This document shows, in pieces, positions 32,564 through 64,000 of a DNA stretch of 64,000 nt. This stretch comes from a virus (taxonomy: Duplodnaviria; Caudoviricetes). Numbering within the stretch: the first letter of the stretch is position 1; each line of letters begins with the position of its first letter. The stretch is from positions 5,151 to 69,150 of the IMG/VR virus record IMGVR_UViG_3300031760_000045; one strand, given 5' to 3'. The notes beneath the pieces are model-generated. The model made no database searches. It was not told the DNA's origin and saw only the letters and a program-made list of their open reading frames with translations. A program made the position numbers and the translations under genes.

Positions 32564-32661
32564 TGTCAACTTTTTTGTCAACTTTCAAGGCTCCAAAAAC
32601 TCCTGTGATCTTTGATTTATCTATCCTGCCGGGTTTGCAATCATGTCAACTTTTTTGTCAA
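32564..32661. repeat. Putative integrase arm-type sites
   Basis: TGTCAACTTTTTTGTCAA occurs at 32564 and 32644 (tandem TGTCAA with 12-bp period), beside the att core and overlapping the int 3' end. Confidence 0.55.
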
Positions 32662-33795
32662 TTCTTTAAGCGTTTCACTGAGCTTATCACTGGCGCTCTG
32701 AATATTATTTTTATTCCTGTCAATATATTTATTGAAGGTAAAACTAAAATCAGAATGTCCGGCAATAGCCTGTATGGTCTTGGGATCTACATTACTTGCC
32801 GCCAACAAAGTCAGATATGTGTGTCTGAAGATGTGTGGCGTGGCATTATGGAGGTTGATCGTCTTTCCAATTCTTTCCCATGTTCTTGCAAATTTAGACT
32901 GTGTCATGGGAGTTTCACCGCTGACAACGAATCCTTCCCCTCTGTTTTCCAGGAACGGACGTAATTCCTGTTGAATTGGGATGTCTCTGATGCCTGATTT
33001 GCTCTTGACGTAATCTTGGACGACTGAAGTGTTGCCCTTAAAAGTGACCTCAGATCTAACTAGAATCACGTTGTCCAGAACATTGTCCCATGTGAGGCCC
33101 AATACTTCTCCTCGTCTCATTCCGGTGAAGCATAATAGGGCCATTAACAAAGCATCGTTCTTTTTTAATTTGTGGATGTTGGAAACAATGTCGTTGAATT
33201 CAGTCACCGGCAGAGCATCCCGCTTGGTTTGCTTTTGCGGAAGCGTTATTCTTTTAGACAAGGTAGGATCTCCTTTCACCTTTCCGTCTTCGACTGCGTT
33301 CTGAAAAATTTCATGAAGCATAATCAGCATTTGTTTTGTATAAGATTTGGATAAATGCTGTTTGGTTTGAAAGAACTGCTGAATAACAGCCGTGTCGATC
33401 TGGGTAAGCTTCATATCGTCGAAGTACGGATGAAGATGACGATCCAGAAGAAATCTGTTTGTATCAGCCGTGGAAGGTTTCCAGCGGGGCTTAAGAAACA
33501 CATCAAAGATTTTATCGGTATACTCTTTGAATGTTTCACCAGTCGCTGGCGTCTGAAACTTTTTAATTGCAGACATAATAATATCAGTGAAAGTATTACC
33601 AGTAATCCATGTATGGGTACCATCCGGTAATGTAATATGAACCTTTTGCCGTCCCATTTCTTTTATCCTTTCATCGGTCGGCATTGACTCTATAGAGTTT
33701 TCAAGGTTCTGGGAGAGAAATTGCCCGACGATATATCGGGCAATTTCCTCTGCTTGAGTATATGAAATCAGATTTTCATTGTCAAACATTTTCAA
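32641..33795 (-). CDS. int: Tyrosine integrase
   Basis: TGMRRGE (Arg), HIFRH (HxxR), GHS and FNKY (Tyr) catalytic motifs; N-terminal SAM-like domain. Confidence 0.92.
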   Translation of the reverse strand: MKMFDNENLISYTQAEEIARYIVGQFLSQNLENSIESMPTDERIKEMGRQKVHITLPDGTHTWITGNTFTDIIMSAIKKFQTPATGETFKEYTDKIFDVFLKPRWKPSTADTNRFLLDRHLHPYFDDMKLTQIDTAVIQQFFQTKQHLSKSYTKQMLIMLHEIFQNAVEDGKVKGDPTLSKRITLPQKQTKRDALPVTEFNDIVSNIHKLKKNDALLMALLCFTGMRRGEVLGLTWDNVLDNVILVRSEVTFKGNTSVVQDYVKSKSGIRDIPIQQELRPFLENRGEGFVVSGETPMTQSKFARTWERIGKTINLHNATPHIFRHTYLTLLAASNVDPKTIQAIAGHSDFSFTFNKYIDRNKNNIQSASDKLSETLKELTKKLT

Positions 33796-55354: not shown

Positions 55355-55538
55355 TGAAGCAAACTAAATACGTAGTATTAAGTAGAAGCGAGCTGTACCT
55401 TGTCTGGTACAGCTCGCTTCAGTGAGGTGCTGCAGGCACGGTCCTGTATAGGACCTGCCAGCAGCACCTCACCAGAAGTTTATCTTTGCGAACTTATTAA
55501 TTACATCAATAAGGCAGTTTCTGCTTTTCTTTGCTTCA
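55355..55538 (-). ncRNA. Retron-like msr-msd cassette C (orphan)
   Basis: 9-bp terminal inverted repeat, G at 55529, two small stem-loops, two long hairpins. Confidence 0.75.
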
Positions 55539-55539
55539 A

Positions 55540-55914
55540 TTAGAATGGAGGCGGATTATCGTCTTCACTTTCTTCAGACTTCTTTTCCGCAGGCTTCGCG
55601 GGCGTCAGCGGAATAACCTCAGTAGCTCTTACACTCAGAGAGAACTTTTCATTCCCATTCTTGTCCTTATAAGGCTGAATGATCTGGTCTCCGTAAACCT
55701 GAACCATAGTTCCTTTCTTAATACGAGGGTAGATAAACTCGCCACTCTTTCCCCAGACGGAAACGTTGTACAGGTCACTGATGTAGTTGTCTCCCTCTTT
55801 CTTCGTGGTGTTTACGGACACAGTGAATGAAACGACGGTCGTTCCTTGCCAGTTCTTCTGTGTCGGGTCTTTAATAAGTCTTCCTGTTAAACCTACTTTT
55901 GCGCAATTGGACAT
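55540..55914 (-). CDS. ssb: Single-stranded DNA-binding protein
   Basis: GRL..DP, SFTVSVN, VSVWGK, KG..V.V.G OB-fold pattern; acidic tail ending PPF. Confidence 0.9.
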   Translation of the reverse strand: MSNCAKVGLTGRLIKDPTQKNWQGTTVVSFTVSVNTTKKEGDNYISDLYNVSVWGKSGEFIYPRIKKGTMVQVYGDQIIQPYKDKNGNEKFSLSVRATEVIPLTPAKPAEKKSEESEDDNPPPF

Positions 55915-60196: not shown

Positions 60197-60232
60197 AAAA
60201 AAATGCTGCGCGGCATATACAACCGCGCAGCA
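60197..60232 (-). terminator. Intrinsic terminator ending the RT/tRNA transcript
   Basis: 10-bp stem TGCTGCGCGG/CCGCGCAGCA followed by U7 on the minus strand. Confidence 0.85.
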
Positions 60233-60493
60233 AGGCCACTAGTCCCACCTCGTGGCCGATGCTCCTCAAAGTTGCCTGCCCCGAATTCTTGTAATGAAAA
60301 GCGACATGCATTACTAGGGTTCAACCCGATTGAGCATACGGACAGTCTCTCTGTTAACCGGTCGCTTCTTGACGAAAGGAGGTGATGAGCTATGTACCGG
60401 CTACATCACATTTAACGTCGGACTGAACGAAACCATGTAAACCGACGGGCTCTAGCCAGTTTTGTTAACAAGTTTCTGTCTATCGATAGGCTG

Positions 60494-60564
60494 TCGGAGC
60501 TGAGAGAATCGAACTCCCACTAGCTGGATATAAGCCAGGTGCGCTACCGTTACACCAAGCTCCG
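60494..60564 (-). tRNA. tRNA-Ile (anticodon UAU)
   Basis: CGGAGCT TG GTGT AACGGTA GCGC A CCTGG CT TAT AT CCAGC TAGT GGGAG TTCGATT CTCTC AGCTCCG A: complete 71-nt cloverleaf, A73, no encoded CCA. Confidence 0.88.
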
Positions 60565-60918: not shown

Positions 60919-61088
60919 AGCGAAGAAACTTAGTTACGAAGTAACTATTACTGACTGAGGCCGCCTCGACGACGTCGAACGGCTTGTCGGTTCGACGTCG
61001 TCGACGGCTGCATCAGTCAGATAGATATACCTTTACGGTTCTTCTAATCACATCAAAAGAGTTAGTTAAAACTTTTCTTTCTTACGCT
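60919..61088 (-). ncRNA. Retron-like msr-msd cassette B (overlaps the RT stop codon)
   Basis: Inverted repeat AGCG(U)AAGAAA/UUUCUUCGCU, G at 61077, conserved stem-loops, 70-nt hairpin. Confidence 0.78.
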
Positions 61089-62230
61089 ATTTTACCATTC
61101 AGATAATCTTTCAGCATGGATTTTACGTTTACCTGCCACTTCTTGTTCTGCTGAGCGATTAAATTCTCAAAGTAGTCTTTCTCCACCATCGTGTAGTAAG
61201 ACAGAAGTCCACGCAGGTGATACACGTCATCCATATCCCAATACTTCTTATTCTTTGTATCGAGAATAAAGGAACACAGAGCTCCCCTGAAATTCTTCTT
61301 GTTTCTATACCCTACCGTAATATCATAGTTTCCGTTACACATCAGACCAAGGTTCCAGTTGTTTCCCTTAACGGAACCAAACCTAGTCTTTTCATCCTTC
61401 AGAGTGTAAGGAGCATCGAATTCTTTCAGCACATCTCTGATCAATGCAACCACGTTCATCCACGGAAACTTTTCCTGAGCGGAAACTATAATGTCATCCG
61501 CGTAACGGGTGTAAATCATGTGGCGAGAACTGAGCTCATTGAAGATTCTGAAATCAACGGGAATCATGATCCAGTTGGTCAGAAAAGGCGACAGCGGAGA
61601 CCCTTGCGGCATTTCCCCGTTGGCCTTGTAATTGAGCGAAATTGCCTTCCGAAGCTCTTTGAATCCAGTTGGATCTTTGCAAACTTCGCTCGTAGGAAAT
61701 ACCATGCTGAGCATCTTCATTACAAAGTCCAGATTCGTATGCGGAAAGAAGCCACTGAAGTCCGTCTTCAGATACCAATTGGACTTATTTCCTACGTGTT
61801 TCTTGTTATTATCCACGATACTTCTGCCCTCGATATACGCAAAGGCGGAAGTATGATACAACAGACCGCAGTTATCACGAAGAAAACTGGTGAGCCGATA
61901 CAGTTCAGACTTCAGAGGTTCCAGCGGTTCATCAATGGGACGGAATCCACCAGTAGATTTGGGGATCTTAAAAGAGTTGAATAACTCATTTCTATCCATT
62001 TCAAACAGTCTTTTGTTATCCTCATTGAACTTCTTCAGCCATGAAATCATTCCGGCAACATCGACTTTGGACAATATGTTCTTATCGATATGTTCAAACC
62101 GCCGGGTAATCGTTGCAGTCGAGTTTGAATTCTCAAGCGTGTAATCGCTTAAGACGATATTATCAGCAATCACATCTTCCCACGTTAACTGCCGTGGTTT
62201 TCTGTGCTGCCTTACTGTTACATAAATCAT
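61082..62230 (-). CDS. Retron-type reverse transcriptase
   Basis: IPK..GG.R.I..P, SAFAY..GRS, NNKKH (retron region X, NAxxH-like), DFSGFF, PQGSPLSP, YTRYADD, NLG (region Y, VTG-like); no maturase or nuclease domain. Confidence 0.9.
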   Translation of the reverse strand: MIYVTVRQHRKPRQLTWEDVIADNIVLSDYTLENSNSTATITRRFEHIDKNILSKVDVAGMISWLKKFNEDNKRLFEMDRNELFNSFKIPKSTGGFRPIDEPLEPLKSELYRLTSFLRDNCGLLYHTSAFAYIEGRSIVDNNKKHVGNKSNWYLKTDFSGFFPHTNLDFVMKMLSMVFPTSEVCKDPTGFKELRKAISLNYKANGEMPQGSPLSPFLTNWIMIPVDFRIFNELSSRHMIYTRYADDIIVSAQEKFPWMNVVALIRDVLKEFDAPYTLKDEKTRFGSVKGNNWNLGLMCNGNYDITVGYRNKKNFRGALCSFILDTKNKKYWDMDDVYHLRGLLSYYTMVEKDYFENLIAQQNKKWQVNVKSMLKDYLNGKIA

Positions 62231-62247: not shown

Positions 62248-62558
62248 TTCTGTTGCTTCATAAACTAAAAGAGATGGGGCGATGTCGCTTCCAGGTTTGA
62301 GGCAGCGCCTTCCGCCGGTCTTTACAGGTTCCACGCGCTGATGTTCCACTTCTGACAGTTTGTCAACTCAGTATTTGTCTACTTTCGGGAGACTTTTATT
62401 CCTCTCCCGGTCAGATCATCATTGTTTCGACGGTGTTCTTAAAAGTTCAGGAGCTCTGGATCTCCAGCCCGCGTGAATCCATCTCCGAGCAAAATGATTC
62501 TATTAATTACATCAATAGCTCAACCAAAGGTTGTTCTTCTTTATTAATTACAACAGAA
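62248..62558 (-). ncRNA. Retron-like msr-msd cassette A (upstream of RT, overlaps the ThiF stop codon)
   Basis: Split inverted repeat (8+5 bp), G at 62539, conserved stem-loops, branched template region. Confidence 0.78.
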
Positions 62559-63228
62559 GGGTATCAAAATCGAACGGTTTCAAGATCATTGCCCGTTCAA
62601 GTTTATTTGTTTTGACAAAGTTGATGAAGTTCACAACTCCGCCCATCGCCACAGACCACACCGTCGGAATCACGCAAAGAGAAACTTTGCAGGCACTGAC
62701 AGGCACGTTCTTTTCAGCTTCGGCGTGAGAGAAGTCCATCTGATCCAGAAGGAATTCAATATCTTCATCCTTTTCCCAATCGGCGGCATAATGCTGTGCA
62801 TCCGTCAGAGCAGTACGGAAGTCAAACATCGCCTTAATGTTCATGTTATACCGATTTTCTTCCACGATCTTCCGGCGCAGGTCAATATTATCCACGCAGA
62901 GGAACACATAACCGGAAAGCTTCTGACCGTTCCATCCTTCCGGATACAGACGAATAGTCTTTGCAGCGTCCGGATTGATCTTACACCAACGGTCATACAC
63001 ACCTTCGATCTTGGGCTTATAAAGATTCTCGGTTGTGAACATCTGATTCGCAAGATTATGTTCTTCCACGATATCAAAATCATAGAGACTCACATTCGTC
63101 AGACCAAATCTCGCAAGAAGTTCCGCGACTGATGACCCGACAGAGCCACAGCCGATGATATGAATCCGATCTTCACACAAAGACGGATCAAAGAATTCAC
63201 TGCTTTTCGCCAGATTCACCAATCCCAC
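62548..63228 (-). CDS. ThiF/E1-like adenylating enzyme
   Basis: IHIIGCGSVGS nucleotide-binding loop, YDFDIVE.HNL.NQ, K.E, VFLCVDN..R, DFR. Confidence 0.88.
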   Translation of the reverse strand: MGLVNLAKSSEFFDPSLCEDRIHIIGCGSVGSSVAELLARFGLTNVSLYDFDIVEEHNLANQMFTTENLYKPKIEGVYDRWCKINPDAAKTIRLYPEGWNGQKLSGYVFLCVDNIDLRRKIVEENRYNMNIKAMFDFRTALTDAQHYAADWEKDEDIEFLLDQMDFSHAEAEKNVPVSACKVSLCVIPTVWSVAMGGVVNFINFVKTNKLERAMILKPFDFDTLLL

Positions 63229-63995
63229 TCCTTATCATAATTTATTCCGTTCCAGTAACCGGGAAGATAAACATCGTCCTCTTCTTTTTTCTTCTTCTTT
63301 TCCTGTTTCGGATAATACTTTTCCGGATAATACTGAACAATTTTCTTTGTCTGCACAAGATCTTCTGTCTCGGCAACCCACTGAGTCAGCGTCTGATCTC
63401 CGGTTTCCACTTCCAGAATCACATCTTTGCGGTCATAGAAAGTATTGGCATCCACATCATACAGATAAGTATTGATATCGCCCTTCTTATTCCAGATCTG
63501 GAAGATATAGAATCCGGACTTGCCCATGTTCTTCAGCACATCATGCTGATTAGCAAGATCCACGCCGGAAGCTACTGTGCTGAAGTTTACATGACTATGC
63601 GCCTGGAAATGCATGTGCTCAATTTCGTCATCGGACAGAGAATTAAAGAACTCCAGCGTGTCTTCATCCTCTGTGTCCACTTTTCCGCCGTTGACATACT
63701 GCTTGCAGAGTTTCACGTCATACACCCGATAGAGCTTATCCGAAAGCTTCTCTACCAGACCATACCAGCCAACTTCCGTAGAATAATGATCCACAAGGAA
63801 ATTCATCTTCAGATACGCATCCTGGCTGTACAGGATAGTAATCTTTTCTTTTGCTTCTTCACACATATCCATGGAGAATGAGAACTTGGTTTCGTTCATA
63901 TCGAACTTATACTTCTCAATCCCTTCATGGATCTTCTGAAGACATTTCTTCATCAGCTCAATTTCGGCTTCCTGTGTAAGATTTATCGGTTTCAT
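63216..63995 (-). CDS. JAB/MPN-domain metalloprotease (deubiquitinase-like)
   Basis: EVGWYG (catalytic Glu) and HSHVNFSTVASGVD (HxH-x7-S-x2-D) form an intact JAMM motif. Confidence 0.82.
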   Translation of the reverse strand: MKPINLTQEAEIELMKKCLQKIHEGIEKYKFDMNETKFSFSMDMCEEAKEKITILYSQDAYLKMNFLVDHYSTEVGWYGLVEKLSDKLYRVYDVKLCKQYVNGGKVDTEDEDTLEFFNSLSDDEIEHMHFQAHSHVNFSTVASGVDLANQHDVLKNMGKSGFYIFQIWNKKGDINTYLYDVDANTFYDRKDVILEVETGDQTLTQWVAETEDLVQTKKIVQYYPEKYYPKQEKKKKKEEDDVYLPGYWNGINYDKEWDW

Positions 63996-64000
63996 TTACT

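Follow-up and report, generated by a model that had tools for sequence, protein, structure and literature searches.

At the end of the window, the 64,000-nt stretch of phage DNA that was analyzed, a gene for a JAB/JAMM peptidase was followed on the minus strand by a minimal ThiF/E1 gene, a structured RNA, and a retron-type reverse transcriptase (RT) gene (Table 1). The common orientation of JAB, ThiF, and RT, claimed in the original prediction for this DNA, was confirmed by the gene calls. The intergenic gap between ThiF and RT was 317 nt, and stop/start overlaps of 4 nt occurred in the block, with the TGA of the gene upstream of JAB overlapping the JAB start codon (ATGA). An overlap of JAB with ThiF was also claimed and does exist, but the proposed 13 nt held only for the longest ThiF ORF, which starts at GTG 63228. 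As every ortholog began with MNLAKS or MDLSKS, the ThiF start was placed at GTG 63219, 8 nt downstream of the ribosome-binding site AAGGAG, and an overlap of 4 nt (GTGA) with the JAB stop is therefore more likely. At the other end of ThiF, its stop codon (TAA, 62550-62548) lay inside the 5' repeat of the first RNA cassette (arm a1, ca. 62558-62540), as had been predicted.

The first strong minus-strand terminator-like hairpin downstream of JAB was found at 60232-60204 and is likely the end of the transcription unit. Between JAB and this hairpin, the minus strand held only three weak terminator-like matches, with 5-6-bp stems, all inside the ThiF and RT coding sequences. The module was located in one strand block with the genes for RNAP, ssb, primase-helicase, and DNA polymerase, ca. 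29 kb from a tyrosine integrase gene. The context genes were those for integrase, DNA polymerase, primase-helicase, and a YonO homolog. The phage was placed in a lineage of large gut and rumen phages that are temperate, SPbeta-like, and equipped with a YonO-type RNAP, and as a tyrosine integrase is present, it can be a prophage. A tRNA-Ile(TAT) gene was located 0.5 kb beyond RT and was the sole match in a DNA similarity search against isolated phages.

Table 1. Coordinates of the module in the window and on contig L166, which overlaps the window end.
Feature	Position	Strand	Evidence or remark
F0, Ubl-fusion gene, 202 aa	L166:10726-11334		
F1, E2-like gene, 477 aa	L166:11403-12836		
F1 3' end (last codons and stop)	63992..64000	-	Cut by the contig end, which is the window end
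JAB/JAMM metallopeptidase, 259 aa	63216..63995	-	Invariant JAMM motif; RPN11 top profile match
ThiF/E1-like adenylating enzyme, minimal, 223 aa from GTG 63219	62548..63219	-	PF00899; ribosome-binding site
Retron-like ncRNA cassette A	62248..62558	-	Covariation, fold z-score, covariance model
Retron-type RT, 382 aa, YADD intact	61082..62230	-	PF00078, NF038233, PADLOC RT_II-A
Retron-like ncRNA cassette B (second)	60919..61098	-	Covariance model R1, inverted repeats; outer limits from an earlier reading
Terminator-like hairpin	60204..60232	-	11-bp stem, 8 G-C pairs, T7 tail
Retron-like ncRNA cassette C (third), between ssb and the primase-helicase gene	55355..55551	-	Covariance model R1

Proteins of the predicted conjugation set

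It had been anticipated that a ubiquitin-like (Ubl) or E2 gene might lie past the window end. Inspection of the genes upstream of position 64000 was made possible by the metagenomic contig L166, which was identical to the terminal 127 nt of the window and extended beyond it, and both kinds of gene were found there: a Ubl-fusion gene (F0) and an E2-like gene (F1) lay directly upstream of JAB, as in all related phages. Residues 1-74 of F0 were modeled as a ubiquitin/SUMO fold (pLDDT 87.9), which Foldseek matched to SUMO and ubiquitin at a probability of 1.00 (TM 0.6-0.72, rmsd 2.2-2.9 A over 72-77 residues). Alignment of F0 with VIA-align yielded Z scores of 8-9.6, with a ubiquitin-like domain in 50/50 top chains, some as fusion tags; the matches included 8tyz_B, a chain of a bacterial E1-E2-Ubl complex, and MoaD (6jc0). 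In the profile search, F0 matched SAMP2 at E 0.013, and PF1061 was also matched. The beta-grasp domain ended not in Gly but in an invariant D-N-A-A (A76), followed by an extension of 125 aa, and no fold or family match was found for this C-terminal domain (residues 77-202).

The model of F1 (pLDDT 90.8) comprised an extra N-terminal domain, a long coiled coil, and an RWD/E2-like C-terminal domain with a UBC-like order of strands and helices. Outside the coiled coil, the best matches of residues 255-420 were all RWD domains (Knl1, Z 7.0; Listerin, 6.5/6.0; SEA complex, 6.4), members of the UBC superfamily; a structural Z of ca. 7 is borderline by the aligner's own notes. The motif N-P-H-x5-C was invariant, and N381, H383, and C389 were the only residues without variation across the 136 family members compared (19-35% identity). 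These features suggested that F1 may be an E2-like protein with C389 as its candidate catalytic cysteine. No profile match (Pfam, NCBIfam, PADLOC, PDB) supported the E2 assignment: F1, like F0, matched no Pfam, NCBIfam, or PADLOC model, and its profiles found only coiled-coil noise in the PDB. Foldseek returned nothing from the PDB at E <= 0.001, re-alignment of its top chains gave coiled-coil matches only, and the single BFVD match was an uncharacterized member of the F1 family. Clustering at 50% identity divided the family into more than 2,000 clusters, all without annotation, and no name for it was found in any source searched; a weak ESM Atlas lead to DUF7829 (score 0.90) was dropped, as Pfam scans did not confirm it.

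A Pfam scan of the JAB ORF found no match, and a degenerate pattern for the JAB N-terminus matched nothing in viral contigs. When JAB was aligned with 10 orthologs, the signature E74...H133-x-H135-x7-S143-x2-D146 was invariant in all 11 sequences, in agreement with the original prediction that the JAMM motif is intact. The top PDB match of the alignment profile was the JAMM enzyme RPN11 (E 0.011), spanning the motif, and the PADLOC JAB model was matched at E 0.027. The predicted roles of JAB are maturation of the Ubl precursor and deconjugation.

ThiF matched PF00899 at 2.1e-19 and consisted of the adenylation domain only, without a separate CYS domain; a single invariant cysteine (C177) followed that domain. 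Also invariant were GCGSVGS (GxGxxG), D47, N55, Q59, K70, and D110, with R115 nearly so. N58 occupied the Arg position of the NRQ motif, an Arg that is present in ThiF/MoeB-type enzymes. The best NCBIfam match was ThiS adenylyltransferase ThiF (62 bits, cut-off 159), and residues 14-90 matched PADLOC E1-E2 models at up to 1.2e-15.

Reverse transcriptase and RNA cassettes

By its profile scores, the RT belongs to the retron clade. It matched PF00078 at 5.5e-17, its catalytic residues Y243-A-D-D246 were invariant, and its best profiles were all retron RTs, namely NF038233 (retron St85 family, 5.9e-48), PADLOC RT_II-A (2.5e-46), and PADLOC RT_I-A. The score against NF038233 (163.6 bits) was below the curated cut-off of 235, and the RT was therefore assigned to a separate clade rather than to a described family. 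More than 550 IMG/VR loci carried members of this clade. Retron-like RT clades have been reported in viruses, with nothing further on a pairing of this kind (PMC13681634). A 112-kb contig carried an identical RT. A diversity-generating retroelement was rejected on the retron RT profile scores and on the architecture of the RNA, and a reading of the C-terminal YLNG of the RT as a Cap2-style conjugation tail was abandoned, as these residues were not kept in more distant relatives.

Cassette A was arranged in the order of arm a1, a conserved G (62539), the hairpins P1 and P2, a variable G+C-rich template region, and arm a2 (ca. 62266-62250), which pairs with a1 and lies just before the RT ribosome-binding site. 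In a1/a2 and P2, 90.6% of cells were paired, with compensatory changes in 11/17 pairs, against 32-39% of cells in slid controls. The compensatory changes fell in 7/10 pairs of the a1/a2 helix and in 4/7 pairs of P2, where 100% of cells were paired, and P1 was preserved as a hairpin despite sequence change. The G of TAAA-G was retained in 9/10 cassettes. Cassette A had a fold z-score of -3.1 and matched the covariance model at 76.6 bits. With its strong covariation, the predicted RNA has the architecture of a retron ncRNA; it is msr-msd-like, and its msDNA is putative.

Two further cassettes were recognized by covariance model R1. Cassette B started at the RT stop codon (42.3 bits, E 1.8e-5, at 61025-61098) and contained a long near-perfect hairpin formed by inverted repeats (60951-60980 / 60990-61020); cassettes directly after the RT stop also occurred in five related loci (L010, L011, L059, L070, and L082). 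Cassette C lay 5.5 kb from RT (39.7 bits, E 6.8e-5, at 55478-55551), with a1 TGAAGCAAA-G, P2 loop GATGTAATT, and a2 TTTGCTTCA. A single RT was thus accompanied by several cassettes, upstream, directly downstream, and 5.5 kb away; in relatives cassettes occurred in tandem, and their number and hairpin sequence differed between relatives. On MAG loci, the sensitivity of a nucleotide HMM built from the 5' element of the cassettes was too low; the covariance model performed better but misses divergent cassettes.

Co-occurrence and comparison with known systems

The block of Ubl, E2-like, JAB, and E1 genes with RT behind it was conserved in 12 viral contigs and recurred in ca. 150 related loci, which indicated that the arrangement does not reflect chance. 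The original prediction proposed JAB and ThiF as partner proteins of the retron and named the co-occurrence of JAB, ThiF, and RT as a check; co-occurrence was near total in both directions, and this near-obligate co-inheritance supported the proposal. Among RT-anchored loci with room, ThiF was present in 74/74, JAB in 73/74, F1 in 67/67, and F0 in 66/67, and no member of the RT clade without the kit was found among the 74. Conversely, RT was present in 52/62 ThiF-anchored MAG loci with room; of the 10 without a visible RT, 7 ended less than 1.2 kb past ThiF and two were clear exceptions. The module was present in 11/11 RNAP-anchored loci (RNAP identity at least 53%, with upstream room), and it remained fixed and syntenic even where RT identity was as low as 39% and F1 identity was 20-30%. 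Within the lineage, JAB-ThiF was not commonly found without RT, the outcome that had been named as evidence against a partnership; such pairs were only very distant (25-31% identity), in crAss-like phages. For the alternative in the original prediction, an anti-defence deconjugase, nothing spoke for or against it. A literature search for a retron with ThiF, JAB, E1, or ubiquitin-like proteins found no paper describing the pairing.

The four proteins have counterparts in BilABCD (Types I/II), a bacterial ISG15-like ubiquitination system (10.1101/2023.09.26.559546; 10.1101/2023.09.04.556158), in which the same four roles occur in the same order: Ubl, E2, JAB deubiquitinase, and E1. Both systems have a single ubiquitin/SUMO-like beta-grasp Ubl, the Bil Ubl chain 8tyz_B being among the structural matches of F0, and a JAB-family deubiquitinase with a complete JAMM motif. 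The Bil JAB pre-processes a Ubl fusion (10.1101/2023.09.26.559546), so that cutting of a C-terminally extended Ubl is demonstrated there, whereas here it is only proposed. In Bil, the deubiquitinase exposes a reactive C-terminal Gly on the Ubl, and the E1 is a multidomain enzyme with a CYS domain; here the tag would end in Ala-Ala before a long extension, and the minimal ThiF has no CYS domain. The Bil E2 carries the motif CEHH, in contrast to the N-P-H-x5-C, extra N-terminal domain, and coiled coil of the 477-aa E2-like protein. F0 and F1 showed no detectable membership of the Bil families by sequence, and in a PADLOC scan no Bil-type model matched any of the four proteins (the Bil models of that release were unconfirmed). 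Unlike Bil, the present set is encoded by phages and always accompanied by a retron RT with its RNAs.

Retrons were compared on the basis of the 13 types as modeled in PADLOC (RT, msr-msd ncRNA, and effector). Shared with them were a retron-clade RT with YADD, nearest to the type II-A and St85 family profiles; an ncRNA upstream of RT with covarying a1/a2 and a conserved G after a1; and two small hairpins followed by a long variable hairpin region. The present system differed in an RT below every curated cut-off, in several cassettes per RT, with msDNA putative, in being a fixed module of a phage lineage, and in having as accessory genes a Ubl-conjugation kit that is absent from the described types. 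None of the retron effector models in PADLOC was matched by F0, F1, JAB, or ThiF.

Other systems resembled the module in part. Type II CBASS also pairs an E1-type adenylation domain with JAB (Cap2/Cap3), but the PADLOC E1-E2 models covered only the Rossmann part of ThiF; Cap2 is an E1-E2 fusion, whereas here two genes encode E1 and the E2-like protein separately, and the C-terminus of a cyclase is conjugated there in place of a true beta-grasp tag. No cyclase (CD-NTase) was seen in the five-gene block. The PRTRC cassette (TIGR03734-03742) is likewise a mobile-element cassette with a ThiF-family protein; membership was rejected, as ThiF scored 19.4 bits against TIGR03736 PRTRC_ThiF (cut-off 144.75), and no other PRTRC model matched F0, F1, or JAB. 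The archaeal SAMP/UbaA/HvJAMM1 system shares a minimal E1, a small beta-grasp tag, and a JAMM peptidase, which in that system cleaves linear tag fusions; SAMPylation proceeds without an E2 or an RT, and its tags have a Gly-Gly terminus. In the crAss-like phage cr126_1, a JAMM protein (MHSHHILGAFFSGTD, gp029/gp028 pair) lies directly upstream of ThiF among replication genes, as here, but identity to that ThiF was only 24.6%, its surroundings showed no RT, and an F1 relative was not detectable.

Proposed function and alternative explanations

The findings in this study suggested that JAB and ThiF occupy the third and fourth positions in a complete Ubl conjugation set which, with the RT and its cassettes, forms one conserved co-transcribed module; we place the probability of this reading at roughly 0.7. 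The unit would join msDNA synthesis to protein tagging. In the proposed mechanism, JAB would cut the F0 precursor after A76 to release a 76-residue ubiquitin-fold tag. The tag C-terminus would then be adenylated by ThiF, possibly with a thioester on C177, and the tag would pass to C389 of F1 and from there to target proteins, from which JAB could also remove it. With the variable hairpin regions of the three cassettes as templates, the RT would synthesize msDNA, priming at the conserved G after a1. The two halves would cooperate, with the RT-msDNA complex controlling or directing the tagging.

We weakly favored a role for this module in the phage's own infection programme (counter-defence or the handling of replication intermediates) over a moron that protects the lysogen, as the neighbors of the module are early and replication genes and the lineage has it as a fixed component. 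To our knowledge, however, all retrons and Bil systems characterized so far act in anti-phage defence, which, for a temperate phage, argues for defence rather than a role in the lytic cycle. The module might accordingly be a prophage-borne defence and a new retron type, in which RT-msDNA would detect superinfection by another phage and in response set free or switch on the Ubl cascade, so that invader proteins are tagged and disabled, as Bil does with tail fibres, and the lysogen is protected. This explanation, which we consider possible but unlikely, would be consistent with the defence retrons found as best RT profiles (St85 family, PADLOC RT_II-A, RT_I-A), the gene order of the BilABCD defence operon, the integrase, and, as an arms race would predict, cassettes that vary in number and in hairpin sequence. 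Defence genes of prophages are, as a rule, variable morons, whereas this module kept its synteny at low RT and F1 identities, far from the integrase, in the strand block of the replication genes and with one cassette placed between ssb and the primase gene; the lack of a PADLOC Bil-type match and the restriction of the CBASS E1-E2 matches to the Rossmann part of ThiF also argue against it.

It is very unlikely that the kit and the retron are independent neighbors, with a self-standing Ubl/JAB/E1 kit (used, for example, in removing host Cap2/Bil conjugates or in tagging host proteins) beside an unrelated retron. The distant crAss-like pair in the replication module of cr126_1 occurs without RT, so a JAB-ThiF pair can work alone; Xanthomonas jumbo phages have a distant ThiF with no RT nearby and no JAB shown beside it; one lineage (L047) retained the kit with no RT within 8 kb; and ThiF and RT were separated by several kb in some loci, such as L060 and L082. 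Against this explanation stand the near-total two-way co-occurrence, with no RT-clade member found to lack the kit, the a1 arm of the retron RNA written over the ThiF stop codon, and intervening terminator-like matches that were weak and confined to coding sequences. A sulfur-carrier pair of the ThiF-ThiS, MoeB-MoaD, or TtuC-TtuB kind, thiolating nucleic acid (phage tRNA or msDNA) rather than proteins, would suit the minimal E1 with its ThiS adenylyltransferase match, the SAMP2, PF1061, and MoaD matches of F0, and the nearby tRNA-Ile(TAT) gene, but is highly improbable given that the block has no rhodanese or cysteine desulfurase gene, that the tag ends in Ala-Ala plus an extension with no free Gly-Gly, that the F0 fold matches ubiquitin/SUMO at least as well as MoaD, and that JAB and the N-P-H-x5-C protein, always present, fit conjugation and removal.

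For the co-transcribed module that we prefer, a chemical coupling of its halves was also considered, in which the tag or the RT would be ligated by the E1/E2-like enzymes to msDNA or msDNA-bound proteins, producing a protein-DNA conjugate or msDNA-guided tagging for use in infection. We regard this as quite unlikely; if true, it would add a novel type of ubiquitin-like modification, one directed by nucleic acid, in which, for example, rapidly evolving DNA hairpins could serve as decoys that mark or trap host DNA-targeting defence proteins.

Both retrons and the ubiquitin-like systems of bacteria entered the field of phage-host conflict recently, and in all known cases they serve the host as defences; here they are combined in one operon, which is fixed in a gut and rumen phage lineage of very high abundance. 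If the halves cooperate, the module would represent a new retron type with a protein-tagging cascade as its "effector" and would provide compact new parts, including a 223-aa E1, an Ala-Ala-ending tag, and a multi-cassette retron. It would also mean that phages have turned both reverse transcription and ubiquitin-like tagging to their own use.

Setting of the locus and genes past the window end

The window spans bases 5151-69150 of its IMG/VR record, a linear contig of 69,150 nt; base 64000 of the window is thus the contig end, and the sequence 5′ of the JAB gene was therefore unreadable within it. The phage is large and temperate, and encodes a tyrosine integrase, DNA polymerase, primase-helicase, RNA ligase, tail proteins, and a single-subunit RNA polymerase (RNAP) of 944 aa with 32% identity to YonO of SPbeta. 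Its relatives came from rumen and gut samples, in contigs of 100-160 kb, and many were binned in Clostridia MAGs (Oscillospiraceae, Acutalibacteraceae, Christensenellaceae, and Lachnospiraceae). As originally predicted, JAB, ThiF, and the reverse transcriptase (RT) were encoded on one strand, the order on the minus strand being the JAB ORF, ThiF, a 317-nt gap, RT, a non-coding stretch of ca. 1 kb that includes a tRNA gene, and the RNAP gene. The tRNA gene fell within the same apparent transcription unit as RT and RNA cassette B. Before 60232-60204 on that strand, only three terminator-like matches were found, all weak, with 5-6-bp stems, and all in ThiF or RT coding sequence. One relative carried a DUF488-N3a gene ("active DUF488-N3 subclade"; L008:5143-5526) 2.4 kb upstream of its Ubl gene, which was not conserved in other relatives.

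Features of the module and integrase in the window
Feature	Coordinates	Strand	Remarks
JAB ORF, 259 aa	63995..63216	-	JAMM signature
ThiF ORF	3′ end at 62548	-	PF00899, 2.1e-19
a1 arm, cassette A	about 62558-62540	-	contains ThiF stop TAA 62550-62548
RT, 382 aa	62230..61082	-	YADD kept
tRNA-Ile, anticodon TAT (reads AUA)	60493-60564	-	between cassette B and RNAP gene
Tyrosine integrase	32641-33795		

In ten related viral contigs, JAB was always preceded by a protein of ca. 202 aa (F0) and one of ca. 475 aa (F1), with stop and start codons abutting or overlapping. When JGI metagenome contigs were scanned for an exact match to the initial 40 nt of JAB, one 16-kb contig (L166) was recovered, the last 127 bases of which were identical to the window end. 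Both genes are present in it, F0 with 202 aa and F1 with 477 aa, and the F1 stop overlaps the JAB ATG. Judged from this 127-nt identity, the window phage or a near-identical one has both genes, in agreement with the earlier expectation of a Ubl or E2 gene just beyond the window.

Proteins of the putative ubiquitin-like kit

The F0 N-terminal domain was shown by modeling to adopt a ubiquitin fold (AlphaFold pLDDT 87.9). Residues 1-74 matched SUMO and ubiquitin in Foldseek (probability 1.00, TM 0.6-0.72, rmsd 2.2-2.9 Å over 72-77 residues), and in VIA-align (Z 8-9.6) all 50 top chains had a ubiquitin-like domain, in some cases as a fusion tag; MoaD was one of them, as was the Ubl from the bacterial E1-E2-Ubl complex 8tyz. 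The sequence profile matched SAMP2 (E 0.013). The domain terminates in an invariant D-N-A-A76, followed by a conserved 125-aa domain for which no fold was found.

F1 is probably E2-like, at roughly two chances in three. Its model (pLDDT 90.8) consisted of two domains, the N-terminal one alpha/beta, with a 65-residue helix between them, and gave no Foldseek match. In exhaustive alignment, the best matches outside the coiled coil were RWD domains, all over residues 255-420 (Knl1, Z 7.0; Listerin, 6.5 and 6.0; SEA complex, 6.4). RWD is a member of the UBC/E2 superfamily, and the modeled order of elements (helix, two strands, insert, two strands, loop, three helices) fits this fold. A library-wide profile search yielded 2,166 cluster representatives, all about 470-500 aa and none named; among 136 representatives sharing 19-35% identity with the reference, invariance was limited to N381, H383, and C389, an Asn/His motif six residues before Cys, like the HPN-Cys signature of E2 enzymes. 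None of the sequence profiles searched supported the E2 assignment.

The JAB ORF had no Pfam match; its JAMM motif was intact, as had been noted from the sequence, and alignment with ten orthologues retained the full signature (E74, H133-x-H135-x7-S143-x2-D146). The top PDB match of its profile, spanning the motif, was the JAMM enzyme RPN11 (E 0.011). The JAB stretch at 63239-63300 (residues about 232-252) comprised a Lys/Glu-rich low-complexity linker and, after it, a conserved aromatic motif at the C-terminus, YL.GY..G..Y...DW, with a nearly invariant terminal Trp, which could be a docking tail.

ThiF orthologues kept GxGxxG, D47, N55, Q59, K70, and D110; R115 was almost invariant, and Cys177 was the only invariant Cys. 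The genes of JAB and ThiF do overlap, but the 13 nt of the original prediction applies only to the longest ThiF ORF; because all orthologues begin MNLAKS and AAGGAG lies 8 nt ahead of GTG 63219, the overlap is most likely the 4-nt GTGA.

The retron and its linkage to the kit

The best RT profile scores were retron models (St85 family, 5.9e-48; RT_II-A, 2.5e-46), both below the curated cut-off. Related loci shared a cassette layout. Its 5′ arm (a1) ends in TAAA, is followed by G, and lies either just past the ThiF stop codon or across it; in cassette A the stop lies inside a1, as was correctly predicted. Two hairpins come next: P1, which is small and has a conserved stem and changing sequence, and P2, which has 7 bp and the loop (A)TGT(T/A)A(T). 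They precede the motif CAYTTTGCYCGG, then a hairpin region that is variable and rich in G+C, and finally a 3′ arm (a2), TTTA-N, pairing with the 5′ arm. Across ten cassettes, a1/a2 and P2 were 90.6% paired, against 32-39% with a slid partner, and 11 of 17 pairs had compensatory changes. The RNA is thus retron-like and covarying, and the predicted structure of the ThiF-RT intergenic RNA is that of a retron, closed by a1/a2 with G after a1. A 14-nt direct repeat, TATTAATTACA(T/A)CA, occurred at 62501-62514 (within P2 of cassette A) and 62542-62555 (over the ThiF stop and a1), 41 nt apart.

A covariance model built on the 5′ part of the cassette also detected one cassette at the stop codon of RT (B) and another separating ssb from the primase gene (C), as well as tandem or post-RT cassettes in relatives. 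Two complete cassettes lay in tandem between ThiF and RT at L010:11487-12090 and L006:10662-11190, and L039 had four matches around RT, so that cassette number shifts fast among close phages. Further matches several kilobases past the RNAP gene (L005:17652-17726, L006:17930-18002, L023:14085-14167) resembled the dispersed cassette C. One relative had a ThiF-RT spacing of only 4 nt (L013:11561-11569) and thus no upstream cassette; the model located none in this locus, and its RNA may be elsewhere or too divergent for the model.

Linkage was sampled from four anchors: JAB/ThiF/F1 in viral contigs, ThiF in MAGs, RT, and RNAP. The order F0-F1-JAB-ThiF-RNA-RT was kept in 12/12 distinct viral contigs wherever the contig allowed, even where identity fell to 32% for JAB and 26% for F1, and also in L014 despite different downstream genes. 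The proposed check of neighborhood co-occurrence bore the association out: RT followed ThiF in 52/62 loci (one genome per GTDB species), and among the best 80 of >550 RT-anchored viral loci, ThiF was present in 74/74 and JAB in 73/74 with at least 2.5 kb upstream, and F1 in 67/67 and F0 in 66/67 with at least 5.5 kb. The module adjoined RNAP in 11/11 loci with RNAP of at least 53% identity and enough upstream sequence; one locus at 46-48% identity was without it. Among the 10 ThiF loci with no RT seen, seven ended <1.2 kb and one 1.8 kb after ThiF, and L061 had an insertion with a Bro-N gene (its relative L060 has RT 7 kb away). An Oscillospiraceae MAG contig (L047:7992-16648), which kept F0-F1-JAB-ThiF, truly lacked RT within 8 kb downstream of ThiF and would provide a natural "RT-less" control; this stretch held a 330-aa ORF without family and an RRXRR-HNH endonuclease gene.

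The refuting condition named earlier, JAB-ThiF commonly without RT in related phages, did not hold within the lineage; such a pair was seen only far outside it. Distant ThiF genes (25-31% identity) of crAss-like and Xanthomonas jumbo phages had no RT nearby; crAss-like cr126_1 has a JAB-ThiF pair without RT. There, a "metalloprotease" with a JAMM motif (MHSHHILGAFFSGTD) lies just upstream of ThiF in the replication module (L085:4394-6660, gp029-gp028). Linkage of kit and retron in the lineage is near-obligate.

Possible role of the module

The locus anatomy and catalytic motifs are established. In the mechanism we propose, JAB would free the F0 tag at A76, ThiF would activate it, and F1 would carry it on C389, while RT would copy the cassettes into msDNA; each activity would depend on the other. 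The gene order Ubl, E2-like, JAB, E1 matches that of the bacterial Bil operon (BilABCD), whose JAB enzyme cleaved a Ubl-GFP fusion and so exposed a reactive C-terminus (10.1101/2023.09.26.559546). Defence, in which a retron sensor and a Bil-like effector protect the lysogen, is a serious rival and fits a temperate phage, though we regard it as less likely than not. That kit and retron are unrelated, independent neighbors is less likely given their linkage, the pair of cr126_1 notwithstanding, as is a sulfur-carrier role for ThiF and the beta-grasp protein. A full-text literature search returned no paper joining retrons with ThiF, JAB, E1, or ubiquitin-like proteins; one survey noted viral retron-like RT clades, partners not named (PMC13681634). 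We weakly favor a role of the module in the phage's own infection program, as it is fixed across the lineage with synteny kept, and lies in one strand block with genes for replication and transcription, among which its cassettes are scattered.
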